Shown: positions 3,045-12,013 of the stretch, one piece after another
Layout: each line of letters starts with the position of its first letter
Numbering within the stretch: the stretch's first letter is position 1
Assembly: GCA_039714855.1 (NCBI GenBank)
Contig: JBDLIL010000003.1
Span: 1-44,213 of the forward strand
Origin: Patescibacteria group bacterium
Lineage (GTDB): Bacteria; Patescibacteriota; Microgenomatia; UBA1400; PJMF01
DNA: 44,213 bases
Direction: 5' to 3'
Translations under genes and position numbers: made by a program
Notes under the pieces: generated by a model
What the model was told of the DNA's origin: nothing
What the model saw: the letters and a program-made list of their open reading frames with translations, nothing else
Databases searched by the model: none

Positions 3045-3446
3045 TTAAATTAATTTAGAAATATCGCTAAAAATCTGCTGATTATTTTCAAACAAAATAG
3101 TTTTGCAGCCGGCAGCTAAAGCCGCGTTTATATTTTTTATCTGATCATCTACAAAAATAATTTCACTAGCCTTTATCTTAGTTTTTTCAGCAATTACTTT
3201 ATAAGTTTGAGGATCAGTTTTGCTTAAATTTAAATCTTGAGCCGAAAAAATATAATCAAAATTTTTTTCTAAAATTGATTTAATAAATGGTGTTCTTAGC
3301 ATGAAGCTAGAATTTGAGAGAATTCCCGTTTTGTATTTATTTCTTAGCTCATCAATTTTTTTCAACAATTCTTGATTGACAATCCCTTTGCTGGGTTGAC
3401 TTAAAAAAATTACATTAAAAAAGTCAAAGAGGAGAAGTTTTGTCAT
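3045..3446 (-). CDS. Capless HAD-family hydrolase
   Basis: Motif I variant LLFDFFNV, then ILSNS, K-x-DP and FVDD..N..AA..G. No cap domain. Confidence 0.85.
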   Translation of the reverse strand: MTKLLLFDFFNVIFLSQPSKGIVNQELLKKIDELRNKYKTGILSNSSFMLRTPFIKSILEKNFDYIFSAQDLNLSKTDPQTYKVIAEKTKIKASEIIFVDDQIKNINAALAAGCKTILFENNQQIFSDISKLI

Positions 3447-3460
3447 GGTGGGTGAACAAA

Positions 3461-4321
3461 TTACTTACTATAAATATAGTCTATTATTTTTTTAGCTACG
3501 TTAACAGAAGGATTGACCTTATCAAAGCCCTCAAACCCCGGGCAGTCGTTAATTTCTAAAATATATGGGTTGTCGTTTTTATCAAAAATAATATCTATAC
3601 CGGCAAGTTCTATCTCAAGTTTTTTACATACCGATAGCGCTATCTTGCTTAATGGTTTTTTATACTTAGCTTCAATTTGACTATACTTTCCTCCCTGATG
3701 AATGTTGCTAGTGAACTTTCCTTTTGGTTTGGTTTTTTTCATGGATCCCAAAACTTGGTTGTTGAGAACAATAGCTCGGTAATCACAATTGCTTTTAATT
3801 AGTGATTGAGCAATAGTTTTAGCTTTTCCGTAACGATTTTTTATCTTGATTAAATTTCTTATATAATTAACCTTAGACACGGCCTTACCATTGTTTTCTG
3901 TTGAATTTTTTAGGACAGTGGGTAAAGAAATTTTGTTTTCAAAGTTGCCAAAATAGGTTTCGGGAATAGGTAAATTTAGTTTTGCTAGTAAGGACATCTG
4001 AGTAGTTTTTGAGGCATAAAAATATTTTGAGTAGTATTTGCCGTTAAGTACTTTTTCTTTGTCTATTACTTGAAATAATGATTTATTGAATTCTCTAATA
4101 AAATCGGAAGTTTTTTCGAATGAACTTTTGATGATGATGCGATCGAAAGATCTAATATCAATATTATTAACGTATATGTGAGTTTGTCCCTTTTGAAAAT
4201 GGCAAAAAAGCTCCTTTGTATTAGCTAAGATTATTTCGGAAAAGACCTTTTTTCCCTCAGAAACAATCTTTTTCAAAGGGTAAATATTTACTCTATTGTC
4301 TGCGATAATTAGCAACTTCAT
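3461..4321 (-). CDS. RimK-type ATP-grasp amino-acid ligase
   Basis: Motifs LPIPET, VLK, DYRAIV, FTSNIHQGG, GIDII and ILEINDCPGFEGF. Confidence 0.85.
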   Translation of the reverse strand: MKLLIIADNRVNIYPLKKIVSEGKKVFSEIILANTKELFCHFQKGQTHIYVNNIDIRSFDRIIIKSSFEKTSDFIREFNKSLFQVIDKEKVLNGKYYSKYFYASKTTQMSLLAKLNLPIPETYFGNFENKISLPTVLKNSTENNGKAVSKVNYIRNLIKIKNRYGKAKTIAQSLIKSNCDYRAIVLNNQVLGSMKKTKPKGKFTSNIHQGGKYSQIEAKYKKPLSKIALSVCKKLEIELAGIDIIFDKNDNPYILEINDCPGFEGFDKVNPSVNVAKKIIDYIYSK

Positions 4322-5297
4322 ATTTTATTTCTATCATATCCAAAATAATTGATGCAGTATCTATAGGTTTACCTTTTAATGGATAGTGATGCATTCTTAA
4401 ATATGGGGCTGCATTGACTTCAATTATTCCACCTGACTTTTGTTGCGCAATGGGAATTTCCAGCGAATTGCACATAACGTCAATACCGACCGTATCAAGA
4501 TCACAAATTGAAGAAATTTTTTCGAATAATTCAATATTTTCTTTACACGCTTGGTCAGTTACGTTCCAGGATTCTCCTCCAGTGGAAATGTTAGCTGTTT
4601 TTCTTAGTGATACTTCTTGGTTTTTTTTAGGGATTGAGTTAATTGTTAGGTTTTGTTCTTTCAGATAATCAATTACCAATTCGTCAATTAGAATTTTCGA
4701 TAGAGGTTTTGTTTGTTTTTCACCTCTCCATGGATGAAGATTTTTTTCTATAATTAATTCTTTGATAGTTTTTTCACCGTTTCCAGTCACATGCGCAGCT
4801 TTTCTATGATTAGCAGCAACAAATTTGTGATCGATACATAATATTCTATATTCATTGCCTATTAAAGTTTCTTCAAAGAGAACATAGTTTGAGCTGTCTA
4901 TTTGAATTTTTGACAGGCAATTTTTAGCTTGGTCTAGATTTTTTATACCTATAATTACCCCTGCTCCTTCACTTCCATTAAATGGCTTCATTACCAAGGG
5001 AAATATTAATTTGCGCAACAAAAAGACATCACTTTTATTTTTTATTACGATATGACGTGCAGTGGGAATATGAAAATGGTTAAAAACTATTTTGCTTAGA
5101 TCTTTTCTCAGAGCAATGCTGTCGCCGACCGATGATTGAAAGGATGACTTTGATCCCCTGGTGTACCACCATTTATTTCCCCTCGTCATCTTGATTGTAT
5201 CCTCATCAAGAATTTCACATTCTATGCCTCTTTTTTTTGCTGCCTTTAGCATCAAGCTGGCGGTCATGGTTAGTTTTTGATTAGACATGGTGCTCAA
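4293..5297 (-). CDS. ATP-grasp ligase resembling the CphA/GshF ATP-grasp module (no Mur-ligase domain)
   Basis: Motifs AAKKRGI, PLVMKP..GSEG.GV, GNEYRIL, AAHVTGNG..TI.ELI...N.HP.RG, ANISTGG, GIDV and IIEVNAAPYLRMHHYP. The start may be ATG 5288. Confidence 0.88.
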   Translation of the reverse strand: MSTMSNQKLTMTASLMLKAAKKRGIECEILDEDTIKMTRGNKWWYTRGSKSSFQSSVGDSIALRKDLSKIVFNHFHIPTARHIVIKNKSDVFLLRKLIFPLVMKPFNGSEGAGVIIGIKNLDQAKNCLSKIQIDSSNYVLFEETLIGNEYRILCIDHKFVAANHRKAAHVTGNGEKTIKELIIEKNLHPWRGEKQTKPLSKILIDELVIDYLKEQNLTINSIPKKNQEVSLRKTANISTGGESWNVTDQACKENIELFEKISSICDLDTVGIDVMCNSLEIPIAQQKSGGIIEVNAAPYLRMHHYPLKGKPIDTASIILDMIEIKYEVANYRRQ

Positions 5298-6250
5298 AAA
5301 TTGTTCTCTTTTCCAACTTTCCTCATTTCACTAGCATATTTTTCTCTATCCAAAGTAAAAAAGCTTGGTAGCAGTGGCTTAAAATTGGGATTTAATTCGA
5401 CAGCTTTGCCTACATCTTCCAGCGCCATTTTGCCAAAATATAAATTTGTGATATCAAAATTGTTTTTTTCTAAGTATTTGAATACATTTACTAGACCCTC
5501 AAAATAAACCAAATCTTTACTATATCCACCTGCTTTACTAGTATCAAAAATACCCCTCTTTTGTCTTAAGGTGACCATCCACCTAGTTTCTTGATCTTGT
5601 ATATATTTGCCCAAAAACTGCCAGGTTTCCGAAAACGAATGATTTTGTGCAAAATCAACCGCCGCATATCTAATAGCTGATTTGTAAGCAGACTTATAGC
5701 TTTTGGGTAAAAGTGAGTGTAGTGATGCCAAGCCTTCTTCTGTTTTTAGATAATTTATAAAACCATGTTTTTTCTTTTTTCTATACCATATTTGTTTTTC
5801 ATAGTTAATTCTTCTGATAGCGTGCGTACCAATTTCATGATAAAGCAAGCCAATCAAATCATCTTTTCTGAATTTTGCATTATTTCTTAATTTGATAACA
5901 TCAGTGGTAATAGAAGCTCTGGATACAAAAGATGACGACCAAGTTATTTCATATCTCTTTTCCAAATGATGCATTTCCAAAAAACTATTAATTTTTTTAT
6001 TCACACTCTCATGAGTAAGGAGTGGCCCCTCCAGCATGAGAAGGTCTTGCTCATTTCTGCCAAAATAAGCTTTATTTAAAATTTCTTGCGCCAGCTCTAA
6101 ATATTTTTTTTGAGTTTTGCCAAATTTGTAGAGTTTTTCATTAGTAACTTCTTCTGAATATATAAATTGTGGATTATAGGAGTTATCGGCAAGAAACTTC
6201 TCTTTTTCTTCTAGCAAATTTGTGGGAGTAATTTTTTGCAAAAATGTCAT
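5294..6250 (-). CDS. DUF1704 / MATCAP-like (Tyr/Phe carboxypeptidase-type) zinc metallopeptidase
   Basis: YNPQF.Y, HEIGTH (HExxxH) at 5822-5839, TEEGLA, R.KRG..DTS..GG..KD.VY.EG and LY.GK. Confidence 0.88.
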   Translation of the reverse strand: MTFLQKITPTNLLEEKEKFLADNSYNPQFIYSEEVTNEKLYKFGKTQKKYLELAQEILNKAYFGRNEQDLLMLEGPLLTHESVNKKINSFLEMHHLEKRYEITWSSSFVSRASITTDVIKLRNNAKFRKDDLIGLLYHEIGTHAIRRINYEKQIWYRKKKKHGFINYLKTEEGLASLHSLLPKSYKSAYKSAIRYAAVDFAQNHSFSETWQFLGKYIQDQETRWMVTLRQKRGIFDTSKAGGYSKDLVYFEGLVNVFKYLEKNNFDITNLYFGKMALEDVGKAVELNPNFKPLLPSFFTLDREKYASEMRKVGKENNF

Positions 6251-6252
6251 TA

Positions 6253-7539
6253 TTAGTTTTCTTTTTCACCAATTAAAAATCCTTCAGTGTCTTTGCGCCC
6301 TAATTCTACATCATGTTTAGATCTATTGAGCCTTTTGCTCACTATCATGGCAGTTTTCATTTGCTTACCCTTGAGACGAATTTTTACCTCAATAACTGGA
6401 ACTTTTCCTTCTATTTCTTCTTGTTGGCGCCAAAGCAAATCTTCTAGATCTACTAGCCCTAGTTTTTCTGCTAAAGTTTGAGATATAGCTGAGCGATACC
6501 TGCTAGTACTCACCAGAGCAGGAGTTTTATGAGATTTTCCATGATCATCATAGACCAAAATTTGTGGATCAATAGAAATAATTTTTAGTCCCTCTTCAGC
6601 TTTTATTTTATCTGCAAATTCTTCAGCAAAAAGTGCTTGAGCTATTTTTACTCCATGTTTTGCATTGTGAACTTCCAAGCCTTCTACTCTTTCTAATCTT
6701 TTTTTCAATCCCTCTTTATTGGCAAGTTGAATTGAAAGTCCAGGGAACCCATTTAATTCTACTACCATGGGACCTTTTGTTTCGTGAATAAAAAGATCTG
6801 CTCCCATAAACTGGTATTCGGCTACATTAGCCGCAGCTACAGCCAATTCTAGTGTCTCGCTCCAAAATGGGATACTGACCCCATTTATTTTTTTCTTGCC
6901 CTTTGGAAAGTGTGTGATGCTTTCACCTTTACCCTTGATCCCATATGTGGTTATTCCAGTAGCGATATCTACACCTATGCCTAGAGCTCCTTTATCTAAA
7001 TTAGCTTTACCATTGGATTCTTTTGTAGGTATGCGCAGCATAGCCATCACAGGTACGGAATTAAAAACAATCACTCTTACATCTGGAGTACCTTGATATG
7101 ATAATTTCGCTAATTTTGGATGAGGTGGTATCATTTCCTCAATTAATGCATGAAATTGGGATCCCCAAGTACTAAATTCACCATCTAGTATATTGCGGAT
7201 ATGAAGCTCAAGATCATTTGAATTTAGTCTTTCTTTGCCATTTGTAAGCCAAATAGATTTATTTTCTTTCTTTTCAAGAATTACTAAAATACCTTTACCA
7301 GCACTACCGCTGACTGGTTTGATCACAAAAGGTGTGGGAATAGTTTCCCATTGCAATTGCTCTAGTTGTTCCATTGATTCTAAAACATGATAAAGTTTTG
7401 CGGTAGCTATTTTATTTTCCTGCAAAAGTATTTTGGTTTTCAATTTGGAAAAACCAAACTTTCTTGATTTAGAAGAATTGAGCTTCGTAAAGAAATAACG
7501 AGCATTCATCCCTAGGATATGCGACGGTTTGCTTGGCAT
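6253..7539 (-). CDS. Alpha-L-glutamate ligase-like ATP-grasp protein fused to a C-terminal, apparently inactive aspartyl-protease-like domain
   Basis: ILGMNAR, FVIKP..GS.GKGI, G.PDVRVIVFN..PVMAMLR.PT..S.GKANL..GA.G.GVD and VVELN..PGLSIQLAN. C-terminal ALVSTSRYRSAIS...LA.KLGL...LGR.D..GFLI has STS where DTG is expected. Start moved to ATG 7539. Confidence 0.88.
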   Translation of the reverse strand: MPSKPSHILGMNARYFFTKLNSSKSRKFGFSKLKTKILLQENKIATAKLYHVLESMEQLEQLQWETIPTPFVIKPVSGSAGKGILVILEKKENKSIWLTNGKERLNSNDLELHIRNILDGEFSTWGSQFHALIEEMIPPHPKLAKLSYQGTPDVRVIVFNSVPVMAMLRIPTKESNGKANLDKGALGIGVDIATGITTYGIKGKGESITHFPKGKKKINGVSIPFWSETLELAVAAANVAEYQFMGADLFIHETKGPMVVELNGFPGLSIQLANKEGLKKRLERVEGLEVHNAKHGVKIAQALFAEEFADKIKAEEGLKIISIDPQILVYDDHGKSHKTPALVSTSRYRSAISQTLAEKLGLVDLEDLLWRQQEEIEGKVPVIEVKIRLKGKQMKTAMIVSKRLNRSKHDVELGRKDTEGFLIGEKEN

Positions 7540-7563
7540 AATGCGGTTCAAAAATTTGATTAT

Positions 7564-8517
7564 TTATTCTTCAATTATAGGCCTAAAACGCAGCCACTCA
7601 GCCAAGCGTAGCCCAGTAAATCTTCCAACAACGAAATTTAGAATTGCAGTAGAAATCAGCAGTAGTTCTGGTTCTAGAAGGGCGAGCTTTTGTAAAAATT
7701 CCCATTGTAAGAGGATGCTAGAAATAAAAGCTAAGACCAGAGTTTCAATTGTTAGGGCGAGTGCATCGCTTTGTTTGGTGCTGACTTGAGCGTCTAAAAA
7801 GTTTTGACCTAATAACACCAAGATTAAAATAGGGAAAATGTTTACTATCATTAGGCTGGTAATATTGAGTATTGGGGCTACTATAAAAAGCCCTAAAATA
7901 CCTAGCGATACACCCCAAAGAGTGAGAGCAGTTCTGGGCAAATATGGCAATCTAAAGCGGCTTAAAATCCTCTTGGCTATAAGAGCAGTAACAACTATCG
8001 CAGCGAACATAATTAATCCTGCTACTACCCCAGTAGAAACTAAAGCCACAGATAAGACGGCAGGTATGTAAATGCCAAATCCTCGCAAACCAATAATATG
8101 CCTGGATGAAGCAATGAAGGAAGCCACTAGAGGAAAGAGTAATACCAAAACCAAGACGTTGGCAGGTATTCCTTGAGCAATGGTTTCTCTAATGGCGTGT
8201 TGTAAAAAGTTATTCCAACTCAGTGGTCCGGGTGGATTATCATCGAGATGCTTGGCTAATTTGCTTTTTTGTTGTCCTCCAGTTTCGGTAATATCTTTAT
8301 CTTGTTTTTCTTTGATTTTTTCTTGGACTTCTGCAGAAGGTGATGCCAGCGAAGTGCTTTCTGTAGCCTCTGCGGACTCTGTGGCTTCGATCTCTTCATT
8401 TATGGGATTAATTTCAGCTGTAAGTAAGGGGTTGTTTTCTTGAGCGAAAGCTGAAGTGAAAAATGTAAGATTAAGAATGAAAAACAATACTATGGTAAAG
8501 GATAACTTTTTAAGCAT
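7564..8517 (-). CDS. 7TM protein of the 7TM-transglutaminase-associated family, with a signal peptide and an acidic N-terminal region
   Basis: LL.P.VA......R.IIGL.GFG.Y.P..L..A, PR, FPILIL and G.FTGLRL.E..RF. Ends in PIIEE. Start moved to ATG 8517, 6 nt after TATAAT. Confidence 0.85.
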   Translation of the reverse strand: MLKKLSFTIVLFFILNLTFFTSAFAQENNPLLTAEINPINEEIEATESAEATESTSLASPSAEVQEKIKEKQDKDITETGGQQKSKLAKHLDDNPPGPLSWNNFLQHAIRETIAQGIPANVLVLVLLFPLVASFIASSRHIIGLRGFGIYIPAVLSVALVSTGVVAGLIMFAAIVVTALIAKRILSRFRLPYLPRTALTLWGVSLGILGLFIVAPILNITSLMIVNIFPILILVLLGQNFLDAQVSTKQSDALALTIETLVLAFISSILLQWEFLQKLALLEPELLLISTAILNFVVGRFTGLRLAEWLRFRPIIEE

Positions 8518-8536
8518 GAGGCTATTATAGCTTATT

Positions 8537-8899
8537 CTAAAGCACAAAACCTACAAAAGATTGAAGAAAACCAAGTAAGAATGAAATTAATACTAGGGTA
8601 AAGAATTGATTGAGTTCAATTCCTGCTATATTGCTAGCTTCGATGCTGAATCCTGGGACAAGATAAGTTGCCAGCCAGAGCAAACTTACATTTATTACTA
8701 ATGAAAATAAGCCCAGGGTGACCATATTGATGGGCAAAAAAAGGATATTTAAGATGGGGCGAACTATTTTTTGCAAAAGTGTTAATACTACAGCTGCAAT
8801 TAATAATGTAGCCCAATCTTGATATGAGACTGTAGGCAAGGCCCAAGCTAGGATAAAAATAGTAACAGCAGATTTGATGATGGGTTTAAGTAGGTTCAT
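8537..8899 (-). CDS. YvlD-like 4-TM membrane protein (phage holin superfamily IV annotation)
   Basis: VRPIL..L.LP...TLGLF.LVIN..LL.L...LVPGF. Confidence 0.88.
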   Translation of the reverse strand: MNLLKPIIKSAVTIFILAWALPTVSYQDWATLLIAAVVLTLLQKIVRPILNILFLPINMVTLGLFSLVINVSLLWLATYLVPGFSIEASNIAGIELNQFFTLVLISFLLGFLQSFVGFVL

Positions 8900-8943: not shown

Positions 8944-10296
8944 CTAATCAAACAAGTTTTTTAGTCTGCGCCTCTTGTGCTGATATTTAGAAAATCTATG
9001 AGATTCGTCTCGCACGCGTTGTACTAATTGCAGAGCTGGGTGATTATTGGGTAGTTTTGTTGTTTTGTATTTTATTTTTCCATCTTTAGTTTTTAATGGA
9101 ATTATTATCCTGTCTGGGTTTTTGGCAATGCTGATGACTATTCCCGACCATTGCCAGGCAGATACAGCTGCACGCAATTGCCCCTTTCCTCCGTCAATTA
9201 TGATTAAATCTGGTGTTTTCCACTCGGGATGATTTTGCCTGCGCAATATGACTTCTTTTAACATCTGATAATCATTGGGAGTATTCAGAGTTTTTATGTT
9301 AAACAATTTATACTCACTTTTGTTTGCCTGACCATTTTCAAAAACAACCATAGACACACTAGCTAATTTACCTTGAGTGTTGCTGACGTCATAGCCTTCA
9401 ATGCGGGTTAACTTGTGGGCTGCGGGCAATGGGTAGTGGACACGTAACAGTCTGTTTAGTTGTATTAAAGCTTCTTGTTCAAACATTGGTTTAAGTTGTG
9501 GCAAAGTGATATCTGGTTTTAATCTAAATTTGGGATTTGTAACTTCTTTGATTAAATTTAATTTATCTCGCAATATTGCCGCTTTTTCAAAATTTTGTTT
9601 TTCAGATTCTAGAGCGATATTTTGCTTAATATTTTTAATAACGTTTTTGCTTTTGCCTTTGAGAAATAAAATTAGTTGTTTAATATTATTTTTATAATCT
9701 TCACTGGAGATTTTTCCTATGCATGCGCCAGAGCATTGATTGATATGATAATAAAAGCAAGCTTTGTTTGATTCTGGCTTATCACAAAACTTAAATATTT
9801 TTCTGGCGATTTTTAAAACCTCTTTAAGTTTGTAAGTACTTTGAAAAGGCCCTATTATTGCTCCTTTGTAATCCAAGTTATTTAACTCTTTTTTTCTCAA
9901 AACACTCACTTTGGGAAATTTAGATTTATTAATAAAAATATATATAGGAGATTTATCATCTTTTAGCAAAATGTTAAAGTCTGGCTGATGAGTTCTAATT
10001 AGTTCGGCTTCTATTAGTAGTGCCTCTATTTCGCTGGCTAAAACAGAGTACTTTATTTGTGTTGCAATTTTTACTAAGCGCTTTTTTTCTCTTGGCAATC
10101 TTTTGAGCTGTTTATAAGAAGCAACTCTTTTTTTTATTGATTTTGCTTTGCCAACGTAGAGAATATTATCGTTTTCGTCTGAGAACCAATAAACTCCCGG
10201 CAGTGAGGGTAATGACGATAATGCTGCTGCCCAATAAAGTGAGGGCGACAGGATTGGAGAAGTAGTTGCTGAGTTGGCTGCCTGCCTTGATGTCAT
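8944..10296 (-). CDS. uvrC: Excinuclease ABC subunit C, lacking the C-terminal HhH domain
   Basis: LP..PGVY, LYVGKA, EALL.EA.LI, PDFN..LKDDK, Cys cluster, UVR domain, IEGYDVS, DLIIIDGGKGQL and RDESHRF. Overlaps the upstream gene by 131 bp. Confidence 0.93.
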   Translation of the reverse strand: MTSRQAANSATTSPILSPSLYWAAALSSLPSLPGVYWFSDENDNILYVGKAKSIKKRVASYKQLKRLPREKKRLVKIATQIKYSVLASEIEALLIEAELIRTHQPDFNILLKDDKSPIYIFINKSKFPKVSVLRKKELNNLDYKGAIIGPFQSTYKLKEVLKIARKIFKFCDKPESNKACFYYHINQCSGACIGKISSEDYKNNIKQLILFLKGKSKNVIKNIKQNIALESEKQNFEKAAILRDKLNLIKEVTNPKFRLKPDITLPQLKPMFEQEALIQLNRLLRVHYPLPAAHKLTRIEGYDVSNTQGKLASVSMVVFENGQANKSEYKLFNIKTLNTPNDYQMLKEVILRRQNHPEWKTPDLIIIDGGKGQLRAAVSAWQWSGIVISIAKNPDRIIIPLKTKDGKIKYKTTKLPNNHPALQLVQRVRDESHRFSKYQHKRRRLKNLFD

Positions 10297-12013
10297 AATG
10301 GTAATAGGTATTATTTAACCGTATTGTAAGCGCTTTTTCTGTAGGAAGCGACCAGTTTTTGCTTTGAGCAGAAATTGGCACAGTGATTTGTTGAAAAGGC
10401 AAAAGAGCGTCTATTTTTTCTATGTTACTGTGAATTTGTAGATTGCTATCATCCGAATTTACCCCTAATGGAATTTGATACCAAGCTTGACCAGTGAGAT
10501 TTTGAATTTTTAACGAGTAGCGACCGATCCAAGGAATTTGATAAAAATAATATTGATCTAATGACAATTTAACATCGAAATTGGCTGTGGAGAAATTATC
10601 AGCAAACTGAACCTTTACATCTTTACTATTTTGTTCCTCGAATTTATACGATCCAGCAGGGTATGGTGTTTCGCTAGAATCGCCATTGATGGCAAAAACT
10701 ATATGATTAAGATCGAATTGATCAAAGTAGTTTATGCCTCCGGTAGTGTTTTCCCAAGTGGGATCGACTTGTATCCAAGTGTCTTTTTCATAATCATAAT
10801 ATTCAGGCCAAGTATGCAACACATCTTGAACTAGACTTAAAGGTCTAAGAACATTATTTTGAGTAAAGGCGTAGCCCGTCAATCTTCTAGAAGGTATATT
10901 TTTTGCTCTAGCTAAGCTTACAAAGAGGTCGGTAAATTCTTGACAACTGCTATTTTCAGGATTTTGGATAGTACCCTGAGCACCCAAGCGAATATTTTTG
11001 TTGCCAATCTTTTGATAATTATAGCTCAGAGTATCAACGACATACTTATAAATATCTCTAGCACTATTTTGTTTTTGAGCTAGATTTATAATGTTTTTAT
11101 TATTTGGCCAATATTTTTGCTCTCTAGTATAATTGGAATTTGGAACTACATTGGGATAATCGCCTATGGCATCCAGGCTCACTAGGGTTTGTAAAGTTAG
11201 GTGGACAATTAACTTTTCTTGTGCCTGCAATTGGTAAGAAGCAATCCAGTTGCCATCAGAATCTTTTTCAATTTTTAAAGGTGTAGGATTTAAATCTACA
11301 TAATTCATTTTTTGATATAAGGTATCTGGAGGAAGGGCTATTTGAATAATGCCAGTAGCCTCAGTAGTATTTTCCAGGTTATATCTGAGGCTTAGATCAT
11401 AATATTGTTCACGACCGTAAAAGACTAAAATACTTTCGTCCGTTAAATTATCAAATTTTGTCAAAACATGGGTGTTTTTAGCGATCCAGTCAGAGTTTGC
11501 TGGAGTAGATTTACTTGGTCCACCATATTTAAGCGGAGTTTCTATACTTACTTGATAGTTATCAAATAGATTTTTTTTAGCTAATCTGGGTATGGAAACT
11601 TCTAAAGCGTTTCCACTGACTATGGCAATGTCGGGTGAGTTGTAATTAAGGGTAAAGACTCTTTTTTTACCTTGACCGACGTTTTTATCAGGAAATTTAA
11701 TGCTAATACTGGTTTGATTTGTGGTGTTGACTACATTGGTATCTAGTTTTTTACTTTGTTGAGTAACAACGACATTATCAATTTTATTAGAACCAACTAT
11801 GACGGCGTACTCTTCTATCAAGTATTGCGGACTTTTATTGATAATGGTGAATTCTTGAGAAACTTTAGTAATCCCATTTTCTTGAACGACGTAACTAGCA
11901 TCCAAAGAAATATCAAAATAATCCTGGGAATTATCTGCTTGGGCGAAAACCTTTTGGGAAAAGAGTGGAAAAAGCAAAAAACTGATGATTAGAAAAATTT
12001 TTTTCACTAACAT
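10166..12013 (-). CDS. Secreted, C-terminally anchored transglutaminase-like protein
   Basis: Signal peptide ending VFA. Catalytic triad motifs SCQEFTDLF, LHTWPEYY and WIQVDPTW. C-terminal hydrophobic helix followed by RRKR. Confidence 0.88.
   Translation of the reverse strand: MLVKKIFLIISFLLFPLFSQKVFAQADNSQDYFDISLDASYVVQENGITKVSQEFTIINKSPQYLIEEYAVIVGSNKIDNVVVTQQSKKLDTNVVNTTNQTSISIKFPDKNVGQGKKRVFTLNYNSPDIAIVSGNALEVSIPRLAKKNLFDNYQVSIETPLKYGGPSKSTPANSDWIAKNTHVLTKFDNLTDESILVFYGREQYYDLSLRYNLENTTEATGIIQIALPPDTLYQKMNYVDLNPTPLKIEKDSDGNWIASYQLQAQEKLIVHLTLQTLVSLDAIGDYPNVVPNSNYTREQKYWPNNKNIINLAQKQNSARDIYKYVVDTLSYNYQKIGNKNIRLGAQGTIQNPENSSCQEFTDLFVSLARAKNIPSRRLTGYAFTQNNVLRPLSLVQDVLHTWPEYYDYEKDTWIQVDPTWENTTGGINYFDQFDLNHIVFAINGDSSETPYPAGSYKFEEQNSKDVKVQFADNFSTANFDVKLSLDQYYFYQIPWIGRYSLKIQNLTGQAWYQIPLGVNSDDSNLQIHSNIEKIDALLPFQQITVPISAQSKNWSLPTEKALTIRLNNTYYHYDIKAGSQLSNYFSNPVALTLLGSSIIVITLTAGSLLVLRRKR

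Follow-up and report, generated by a model that had tools for sequence, protein, structure and literature searches.

A candidate peptide-tail system in Patescibacteria that combines RloBC-type genes with a MATCAP-family peptidase

A compact cluster of ATP-grasp ligases, a MATCAP-family peptidase and a 7TM protein

We analyzed a 44,213-nucleotide stretch of DNA (the window) from a Patescibacteria group bacterium (assembly GCA_039714855.1, contig JBDLIL010000003.1, positions 1 to 44,213), which carries a cluster of six genes that may add amino acids to a peptide tail and take them off again. The host genome is 970 kb long and 94% complete. The cluster consists of six co-oriented, tightly packed open reading frames (ORFs) between positions 3045 and 8547 on the minus strand, as are all window features named below. 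In the order of transcription they encode a seven-transmembrane (7TM) protein, an ATP-grasp ligase fused to a retropepsin-like domain, a metallopeptidase of the MATCAP (DUF1704) family, a CphA-like ATP-grasp, a RimK-like ATP-grasp and a short HAD protein. Successive genes are spaced by 12 nt and 2 nt, overlap by 4 nt and 29 nt, and are finally spaced by 14 nt, in agreement with a preliminary description of this DNA, which gave them as overlapping or at most 25 bp apart; its six domain assignments also hold in Pfam, NCBIfam, phmmer and profile searches. The arrangement is far beyond chance, because the same arrangement recurs in relatives. Between positions 1600 and 10500, a promoter scan returned 30 promoter-like sites against 30.2 expected, and a terminator scan returned no convincing minus-strand terminator between the genes.

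The second ORF (7551..6253, 432 aa) begins with an ATP-grasp ligase domain related to RloC and RimK (residues 1 to ~304; 6640..7551). The domain matches PF14397 (E 1.1e-59) and TIGR02291, 'alpha-L-glutamate ligase-like' (E 3.3e-71), with 239.9 bits, under the curated cut-off of 314.2; its score against the RimK model TIGR00768 is 51.7 bits and does not reach the cut-off of 143.4. We built an alignment of this 432-aa protein and 48 homologues taken from related genomes. Residues D252, E265 and N267, which make up the Mg/ATP-binding Asp...Glu-x-Asn motif, are invariant across these 49 sequences, and the motif is common to all three ligases of the operon. The AlphaFold2 (AF2) model of the whole protein has a pLDDT of 86.4, and its best Foldseek matches are ArgX/LysX and RimK, including the RimK-RpsF complex. 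ArgX/LysX and RimK all act on the C-terminal Glu of a protein. The operon's ligases also match the TTL family weakly (E 6e-4 to 9e-3).

The C-terminal ~125 residues of the same protein (6253..6639) form a retropepsin-like domain of the RimB/RloA family. The consensus of the alignment here, ...A-x-I-D-T-G-x-x-x-S-x-I..., is the retropepsin signature, and a profile of the domain matches 9g59 (E 2.6e-10) and 9g58 (E 5.5e-8), both named 'putative ATP-dependent zinc protease domain', as well as 2pma and the Ddi1 retropepsin domain (E 1.4e-5) in the PDB. The homologous domain in another locus, L043, matches PF05618 at E 7.6e-12, and we take PF05618 to be the Pfam zinc-protease family to which RloA, and RimB with it, belongs. 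RloA peptidases are reported as classed by Pfam among the zinc proteases (PMC11957051). In the window, V-S-T-S (6502..6513) replaces the catalytic x-D-T-G. The D-T-G is kept in 32 of the 49 aligned sequences, and the sister genome (G083) reads I-N-T-G; among the 47 loci of the window's family D-[TS]-G is kept in none, and most read N-T-G. Judged from sequence, the gene encodes a RloC/RimK-type ligase fused to a RimB/RloA-type protease domain, which is predicted to be catalytically dead because the catalytic Asp is lost (S-T-S for D-T-G). The preliminary description had called this part 'protease-like'; the fused domain is there, and its nature can now be given more precisely.

The third ORF (6250..5294, 318 aa) encodes a MATCAP/DUF1704 metallopeptidase without a signal peptide. 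It matches PF08014 at E 3.2e-29 (102.5 bits, gathering cut-off 27) and human KIAA0895L (7z5g) at a phmmer E of 1.5e-35. The zinc-binding and catalytic motif HEIGTH (residues 138-143; 5822..5839) and the EEGLA motif with a putative third metal ligand (residues 171-175; 5726..5740) align with the HEIGTH and EEGLASLHS of the human protein, so that both motifs are intact, as had been read at the outset. The score against TIGR02421 (QEGLA) is 101.7 bits, under the cut-off of 338.65, and the protein is therefore not the proteobacterial equivalog. In TMCP1, E281 of HExxxH is reported to be catalytic, and MATCAP/TMCP enzymes are described as detyrosinating -EEY tails, thereby removing the residue after -EE, and as shortening polyglutamate chains (PMC10499314).

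The first ORF (8547..7564, 327 aa) encodes a RloB-like 7TM protein with a signal peptide, an acidic ectodomain, seven helices and a cytoplasmic C-terminal tail (PF14402, E 1.7e-21). The ATG at 8517 is its probable true start, since gene call P0001 of the database is 317 aa long. The RloB model NF052267 matches only over model positions 314-507 of 508, and the N-terminal 130 aa return no transglutaminase model at E 10 or better: the ectodomain of the RloB type is missing. Hydropathy and the positive-inside rule predict an N-out/C-in topology with an Arg-rich cytoplasmic C-terminus. Because the ligases and the MATCAP of the operon have no signal peptides, the tail is predicted to lie on the same side of the membrane as these enzymes. 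The AF2 model (pLDDT 81.6) has no Foldseek match in the PDB at E 0.001 or better, the best being at E 1.3, and for this reason we draw no analogy to a transporter or channel. A cluster search with the 7TM domain found PF14402 clusters only. Long 7TM_transglut proteins (~510-525 aa) also occur among the surveyed loci (L052 6581-8116; L046 12331-13899), with a PKD ectodomain and no transglutaminase domain detected by Pfam.

Three further genes lie downstream. The CphA-G-like ATP-grasp (5297..4293, 334 aa) aligns with positions 152-470 of 862 of TIGR02068 (E 2.8e-83; 280.4 bits, not reaching the cut-off of 850) and matches CphA1 in the PDB (7wac, E 3.1e-44); further matches are N-acetylglutaminylglutamine synthetase and the ATP-grasp half of GshAB. 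Membership of this gene, by itself, among the cyanophycin or glutathione synthetases was rejected for missing domains, a result that bears on membership and leaves the chemistry itself in play. The protein has no N and M domains and hence would not carry out multi-arginyl-poly-aspartate synthesis alone. The RimK-like ATP-grasp (4321..3461, 286 aa; PF08443, E 4.3e-25) matches RimK in the PDB (7qys, E 1.4e-15) and stays under the cut-offs of TIGR00768 (104.2 bits, cut-off 143.4) and PRK10446 (58.5 bits, cut-off 331). Glu-x-Asn is kept in both ligases, as E-V-N in the CphA-like and E-I-N in the RimK-like protein.

The last ORF (3446..3045, 133 aa) encodes a short HAD-fold protein with little or no cap, matching HAD_2 at E 1.5e-12 over model positions 86-177 only, the C-terminal half. 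Motif I of HAD phosphatases has the form D-x-D-x-[TV]. In the window it reads D-F-F-N-V, and the second Asp of the phosphatase type is missing; the capless HAD of the preliminary description thus stands, with a motif I that departs from the phosphatase form. Short HAD homologues in neighboring loci read D-F-F-N-T, D-F-S-W-V, D-F-F-N-V and D-F-S-N-V, and proteins of this kind (132-174 aa, nearly capless) adjoin MATCAP in the window's family (L124, L125, L155 and L158). By their sequences, the short HADs with D-F-[FS]-x-[VT] look like a distinct small subfamily.

Conservation of the core and exchange of the peptidase

PF08014 is present in 76 of 401 sampled genomes of the phylum, in 85 of 201 genomes of the order and, within the window's family, in 51 of 54. 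We fetched up to 20 kb around 135 PF08014 matches and searched the ORFs by phmmer with the window's proteins. A core ATP-grasp gene lies near MATCAP in 105 of these 135 MATCAP-selected loci; the 30 that were excluded (4 without a phmmer match, 26 without a core ATP-grasp) are for the most part short contigs or divergent MATCAP-like genes (430-480 aa) that stand alone. With the window included, the 7TM gene is directly adjacent in 103 of 106 loci, and the three loci with an ATP-grasp and no adjacent 7TM gene were left out of the tail counts (n=103). A single polypeptide of about 770-840 aa contains the ATP-grasp, the retropepsin-like domain and MATCAP in 22 of the 106 loci, and Pfam confirmed one such fusion. 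Because they are fused in these loci and adjacent in nearly all others, the ATP-grasp ligase and MATCAP are functionally linked, which bears out the ligase-peptidase association of the preliminary description. The core of 7TM protein, ATP-grasp and MATCAP is a conserved system.

Stand-alone divergent MATCAP-like proteins of ~430-480 aa, with no ATP-grasp or 7TM gene nearby (L042, L045, L049, L051, L091, L094, L097 and others), appear from their sequences to form a branch of their own within the family in Patescibacteria.

A second sample was selected by alignment of the ATP-grasp. It comprised 80 loci, of which 5 were dropped as duplicates; 71 of the remaining 75 have an adjacent 7TM gene, and four have none within 600 nt, including L248 (tail ...RHLQEE, uncounted). 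No MATCAP was found in the fetched stretch for 60 of these 71 loci. A contig scan with the ATP-grasp alignment returned only Patescibacteria-like loci, and our proteobacterial examples come from four plasmid-collection records only. Records titled 'uncultured Gammaproteobacteria', 'Pseudomonadales' and 'Bdellovibrionales' carry loci of the Patescibacteria type with a ligase identity of 37-47% (L174-L178, L180, L185, L186, L200, L201 and others); these titles are possibly mislabelled.

Comparison of the two samples shows where the fused protease domain has decayed. D-[TS]-G is intact in 58 of the 60 MATCAP-free loci of the second sample and lost in 2 of 60, whereas it is lost in 70 of the 103 MATCAP-selected loci. 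Outside loci with MATCAP, the catalytic Asp is thus hardly ever lost. MATCAP had no match in three sampled genomes of the window's family; in two of these a contig end cuts off the ATP-grasp gene, which leaves G427 as the only informative case. The G427 locus reads uvrC, PF04020, 7TM, ligase (I-N-T-G), a stand-alone retropepsin, a CphA-like ligase and mnmA. The stand-alone retropepsin (134 aa; PF05618, E 1.5e-9) has an intact D-T-G and occupies the position of MATCAP, and the 7TM product of this locus ends in ...SILEKK. RimB is reported to remove Glu from polyglutamylated RpsF/S6 (PMC11957791), and RloA to cut Glu-rich sequences (PMC11957051). From the shared operon position in G427 and the known chemistry of RimB, RloA and MATCAP/TMCP, we infer by analogy that MATCAP and the retropepsin play the same part in processing the product of the ligase. 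The direction of the replacement, as the sequences suggest it, would be from retropepsin to MATCAP.

The accessory genes are recurrent but optional additions to the core. Within 8 kb, 34 of 106 loci have a CphA-like homologue, some of them as many as three copies, and 21 have a RimK-like homologue; either accessory ligase is found in 46 of 106 loci, both in 9 and the HAD in 6. In the second sample accessory ligases accompany 46 of 75 loci, and MATCAP-free modules carry one or two RimK-like or CphA-like genes instead. The downstream ligases are thus tied to the 7TM/DUF1704 core in many relatives, and the lack of such a link, which the preliminary description had named as grounds for refuting it, is not what the loci show. 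The preliminary description had grouped the three ligases as one set, and this set is not obligate: within the window's family an accessory ligase occurs in only 15 of 47 loci and both in 4 of 47. At the locus of the sister genome G083 the order is uvrC, PF04020, 7TM, ligase, MATCAP, mnmA with nothing in between; its sole CphA-like gene lies on another contig (32% identity), and the window's RimK-like protein has no match in that genome. In L043 (10711-13473, minus strand), a 921-aa chain consists of ATPgrasp_ST, a PF05618 retropepsin and a second ATP-grasp (ATP-grasp_3), that is, an accessory ligase fused to the core ligase.

The 7TM gene is immediately preceded, on its upstream side, by a gene for a four-helix membrane protein of 120 aa (8537..8899; PF04020, E 3.3e-23). 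It adjoins the 7TM gene in 44 of 106 loci, always in the order seen in the window, and is a conserved upstream neighbor in the window's family; it may be part of the operon. The Pfam label of PF04020 is 'phage holin' family. Two genes upstream, beyond uvrC, the window encodes a 615-aa protein (10166-12013) that has a signal peptide, contains a Transglut_core domain (PF01841, E 8.7e-14) and is anchored in the membrane at its C-terminus; it is found at the corresponding position in G083 and G427.

The tail of the 7TM protein and the readings of the operon

The 7TM protein of the window ends in ...RFRPIIEE, and its terminal Glu-Glu codons (7567..7572) form a candidate acceptor tail. The closest 7TM homologue clusters, which bear Pacebacteria and Woesebacteria names, end in 2-5 Glu in 116 of 120 cases (two, three, four and five Glu in 41, 43, 31 and 1, respectively). 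An -EE tail is found in 54 of the 103 surveyed loci, in several families and including deep-branching fused forms, whereas only 7 of 870 ORFs of at least 100 aa in this genome end in -EE. The tails are nearly restricted to loci with MATCAP. Across the 103 loci, -EE goes with a lost D-[TS]-G in 52 and with an intact one in 2, and a non-EE tail with a lost D-[TS]-G in 18 and an intact one in 31; likewise, -EE loci have no CphA-like gene in 49 cases and one in 5, and non-EE loci none in 20 and one in 29. Action of RimK on ribosomal protein S6 was considered as well and rejected, as S6 of this genome ends in ...LAEVKK.

These comparisons, which make up the whole case for a tail, suggest a patescibacterial peptide-tail system of the RloBC / RimK-RimB type, in which MATCAP has taken the place of a retropepsin eraser and the residues are likely added to the -EE tail of the 7TM protein. 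We give this reading an even chance. The cytoplasmic RimK/RloC-related ATP-grasp would activate a C-terminal carboxylate and add glutamate or similar residues singly, and the peptidase would take the added residues off again. A ligase-fused retropepsin of the RimB/RloA type would have been the original eraser; with its catalytic Asp lost in this lineage, the role would have passed to a metallocarboxypeptidase of the MATCAP family, whose animal members trim the -EE(Y) tails of tubulin and polyglutamate. The most likely acceptor would be the cytoplasmic -EE tail of the adjacent 7TM protein, with a length set by ligase versus peptidase and possibly answering envelope or osmotic stress. The three remaining genes, for the CphA-G-like and RimK-like ligases and the HAD, would be optional accessories whose products would probably add other residues or prime the same chain. 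The write/erase reading of the preliminary description is a reasonable one for such a gene set, and the ligases and MATCAP may well act in reversible tailing; what the sequences show are the domain identities and motifs, the conserved and in part fused genes, the lost Asp and the -EE tail with its predicted topology, and from these we infer the residues added, the acceptor, the direction of the replacement and the physiology. The fully specified version, in which the 7TM protein is itself the substrate, its -EE tail lengthened by the ligases and shortened by MATCAP after the latter displaced the retropepsin, and the tail is genetically pre-primed with Glu, is possible and we put it forward tentatively.

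Several observations weigh against the 7TM tail as acceptor. In 49 of the 103 MATCAP loci the 7TM tail does not end in -EE, and the tail is therefore not a universal acceptor in -EE form. One large family that keeps D-T-G and has two CphA-like genes ends in ...KENVSK; if such a tail is the acceptor it must first be processed or primed, and otherwise the product must be free. Conversely, the L175 locus has an -EE-type tail but lacks MATCAP. The two proteobacterial RloB tails that we read end in ...AKARS and ...PGKDK, and these proteins have active partners of the secreted RloA type and no MATCAP. Parsimony on a FastTree tree of the ATP-grasp domain counts only 7, 5 and 14 changes in the traits, and the associations among -EE, D-T-G and the CphA-like gene are not significant in independent-pair sign tests (median p 0.5-1); with so few independent changes, the trait associations are leads. 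The ORFs of relatives were called by a simple script, and the accessory ligases were classed by their best window paralogue. Because the core and RimK-like ligases score under the NCBIfam cut-offs, their specificity for Glu is not assured.

Prediction of a complex between the ligase and the 7TM domain returned 'weak support', with a score of 0.37 against 0.00 for the best control, the interface not being part of the output. Agreement between the runs is 90% of contacts or better, with a partner pLDDT of at least 72. In the benchmark, 58 of 80 solved complexes and 2 of 110 mismatched pairs attained the mark, but only 7 of the 80 solved complexes, along with both passing mismatches, did so at 0.60 or under; these counts hold only roughly here, as our own alignments were used for the ligase-7TM prediction. 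The predicted complex thus speaks weakly for the 7TM acceptor, and its weakness is also a point against it.

A second possibility is a free product. The ligases might make a free acidic peptide or polymer, poly-alpha-glutamate or mixed Glu/Asp, that is not joined to the 7TM protein; the latter would export, anchor or sense the polymer, MATCAP and the retropepsin would degrade or size it, and polymerization and release of Glu could buffer cytoplasmic osmolarity or supply an envelope polymer. RimK is reported to make free poly-alpha-L-glutamate, stimulated by RimB (PMC11957791). The polymer that CphA-type G domains extend is also a free one. In P. aeruginosa RloA is described as secreted, and loss of rloB or rloC as rescuing the hypo-osmotic lethality of a triple protease mutant (PMC11957051), which fits a toxic exported product. 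Low salinity is reported to induce RimK 52-fold, a GshB-annotated gene 38-fold and QEGLA 27.5-fold in Photobacterium (PMC10308900), and about half of the MATCAP loci have no -EE tail on the 7TM protein. However, neither peptidase type has a signal peptide here, both occur fused to cytoplasmic ligases or next to them, and the 7TM fold matches no solved transporter at the threshold given above. A free polymer also leaves unexplained the oligo-Glu tails of nearly all close 7TM homologues and the association of -EE tails with MATCAP. We regard it as rather unlikely.

It is also conceivable, and in our judgment improbable, that only the 7TM protein, the ATP-grasp and MATCAP form a system and that the CphA-like, RimK-like and HAD genes are unrelated inserted small-molecule enzymes, making perhaps a dipeptide osmolyte or a glutathione- or cyanophycin-like product. 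The G083 locus, where mnmA flanks the core directly and the three extra genes are missing, the low share of family loci with any accessory ligase, and the matches of the CphA-like protein to the GshAB ATP-grasp and N-acetylglutaminylglutamine synthetase would all agree with this. Yet in both samples accessory ATP-grasps turn up immediately downstream of the core in many distant families, and sometimes they are fused to the core ligase, as in L043; the accessory genes of the window overlap their neighbors by 4 and 29 nt, and the CphA-like protein has neither the N and M domains of cyanophycin synthetase nor a GshA half. Modification or recycling of an envelope peptide (peptidoglycan stem peptides or a surface polymer) in place of a cytoplasmic tail is very unlikely: the Pfam name of PF14397, 'sugar-transfer associated', the secreted Transglut_core protein two genes upstream and the defects of rlo mutants in morphology, ampicillin sensitivity and biofilm formation reported in PMC11957051 point that way, but the conserved core has no glycosyltransferase, Mur-ligase or flippase gene, the enzymes are cytoplasmic, and their closest structural relatives act on protein C-termini.

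Relation to known systems and significance

The closest known system to the proposed peptide-tail operon is RloABC of P. aeruginosa (Lormand et al. 2025, PMC11957051 / PMC12239564). Both have a PF14402 7TM protein (RloB) encoded beside a cytoplasmic ATP-grasp of the TIGR02291 type (RloC), 12 nt apart here, and a retropepsin-family component, which in RloABC is a peptidase cutting Glu-rich sequences and in the window a domain. As reported, rlo genetics places the ligase and 7TM genes in the process of the peptidases, in that their loss rescues the peptidase mutant (PMC11957051). Unlike its RloABC counterpart, the 7TM protein of the window has no transglutaminase-like ectodomain; the retropepsin is fused to the ligase and catalytically dead by its motif, whereas RloA is secreted; and a MATCAP metallopeptidase and extra ligases are present. 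The window's 7TM tail is -EE, unlike the two proteobacterial RloB tails.

In the RimK-RimB-RpsF system, an ATP-grasp alpha-L-glutamate ligase is described as extending a Glu-ending tail and a retropepsin-like protease as removing the Glu (PMC11957791). RimB-RimK hybrid proteins exist, and RimK is among the best structural and sequence matches of the window's ligases. The differences are that S6 here ends in -VKK, that the window's ligases stay under the RimK family cut-offs, and that the proposed acceptor would be a membrane protein and the putative eraser a member of a zinc carboxypeptidase family in place of an aspartic endopeptidase. By analogy, the system of the window would work like RimK-RimB-S6 without being a member of it.

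The tubulin tail cycle of TTL/TTLL and MATCAP/TMCP (PMC10499314, 7z5g), as described there, contains a MATCAP enzyme with identical HEIGTH and EEGLA motifs. In both cases MATCAP is paired with ATP-grasp ligases and a substrate-like -EE tail. Unlike the tubulin cycle, the window has no tubulin, its ligases are of the RimK/RloC and CphA types, and operon linkage and gene fusion stand in place of cellular co-regulation.

The G domain of CphA1/CphA2, to which the 334-aa ligase of the window aligns, elongates a chain at its C-terminal carboxylate; unlike CphA and GshAB, the window's ligase comes without the N and M domains and without the GshA half. Iyer et al. in 2009 reportedly predicted peptide-modifying ATP-grasp neighborhoods that include 7TM proteins. 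A further relative is the proteobacterial QEGLA family (TIGR02421; ~620-660 aa): on an Aminobacter plasmid the MATCAP-family gene lies beside an ATP-grasp annotated as glutathione synthetase and an N-formylglutamate amidohydrolase-like gene, and no 7TM_transglut gene is adjacent in the two loci read. A PF05013 N-formylglutamate amidohydrolase-like gene adjoins the MATCAP-family gene in L010/L059 (G013) as well as on that plasmid (L253), and may be a further hydrolase of the same pathway. The GshB-annotated and QEGLA genes of Photobacterium have neighboring locus tags and are reported to be induced at low salinity along with RimK (PMC10308900); by analogy, this induction fits the hypo-osmotic phenotype of the rlo mutants.

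The preliminary description knew of no biochemical characterization of this gene combination. Its core can now be seen as a variant of RloABC / RimK-RimB, for which genetic and biochemical work exists (PMC11957051, PMC11957791). In a search of the literature, supplementary files aside (including those on Rlo distribution in PMC11957051), we found no paper linking MATCAP/DUF1704 to ATP-grasp operons and none linking an -EE tail to RloB-type proteins. New here are the dead RimB/RloA-type domain on the ligase, the retropepsin at the place of MATCAP in G427 and the cytoplasmic -EE tail of the 7TM protein.

The Pseudomonas rlo operon is reported to affect osmotic tolerance, antibiotic sensitivity and biofilm formation (PMC11957051), and C-terminal polyglutamylation is described in the available text of PMC11957791 as known so far for ribosomal protein S6 only. 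If the proposed peptide-tail reading is true, Patescibacteria would have a bacterial 'tail code' on a membrane protein, the second target of C-terminal polyglutamylation after S6, and a second, membrane-bound target would widen the scope of this modification. The patescibacterial variants, namely the ATP-grasp/MATCAP fusion, the swap of MATCAP and retropepsin and the encoded oligo-Glu tail, are natural experiments that together point to one simple substrate hypothesis for RloBC-type systems. The cluster, a MATCAP and ligase operon carried by a bacterium with a tiny genome, gives the bacterial MATCAP/DUF1704 proteins a concrete predicted role. That bacteria have a ligase, a trimmer and an -EE tail side by side bears on the origin of the tubulin-tail enzymes, and the system, if confirmed, would be a prokaryotic antecedent of the eukaryotic TTL/TTLL-MATCAP tubulin cycle.

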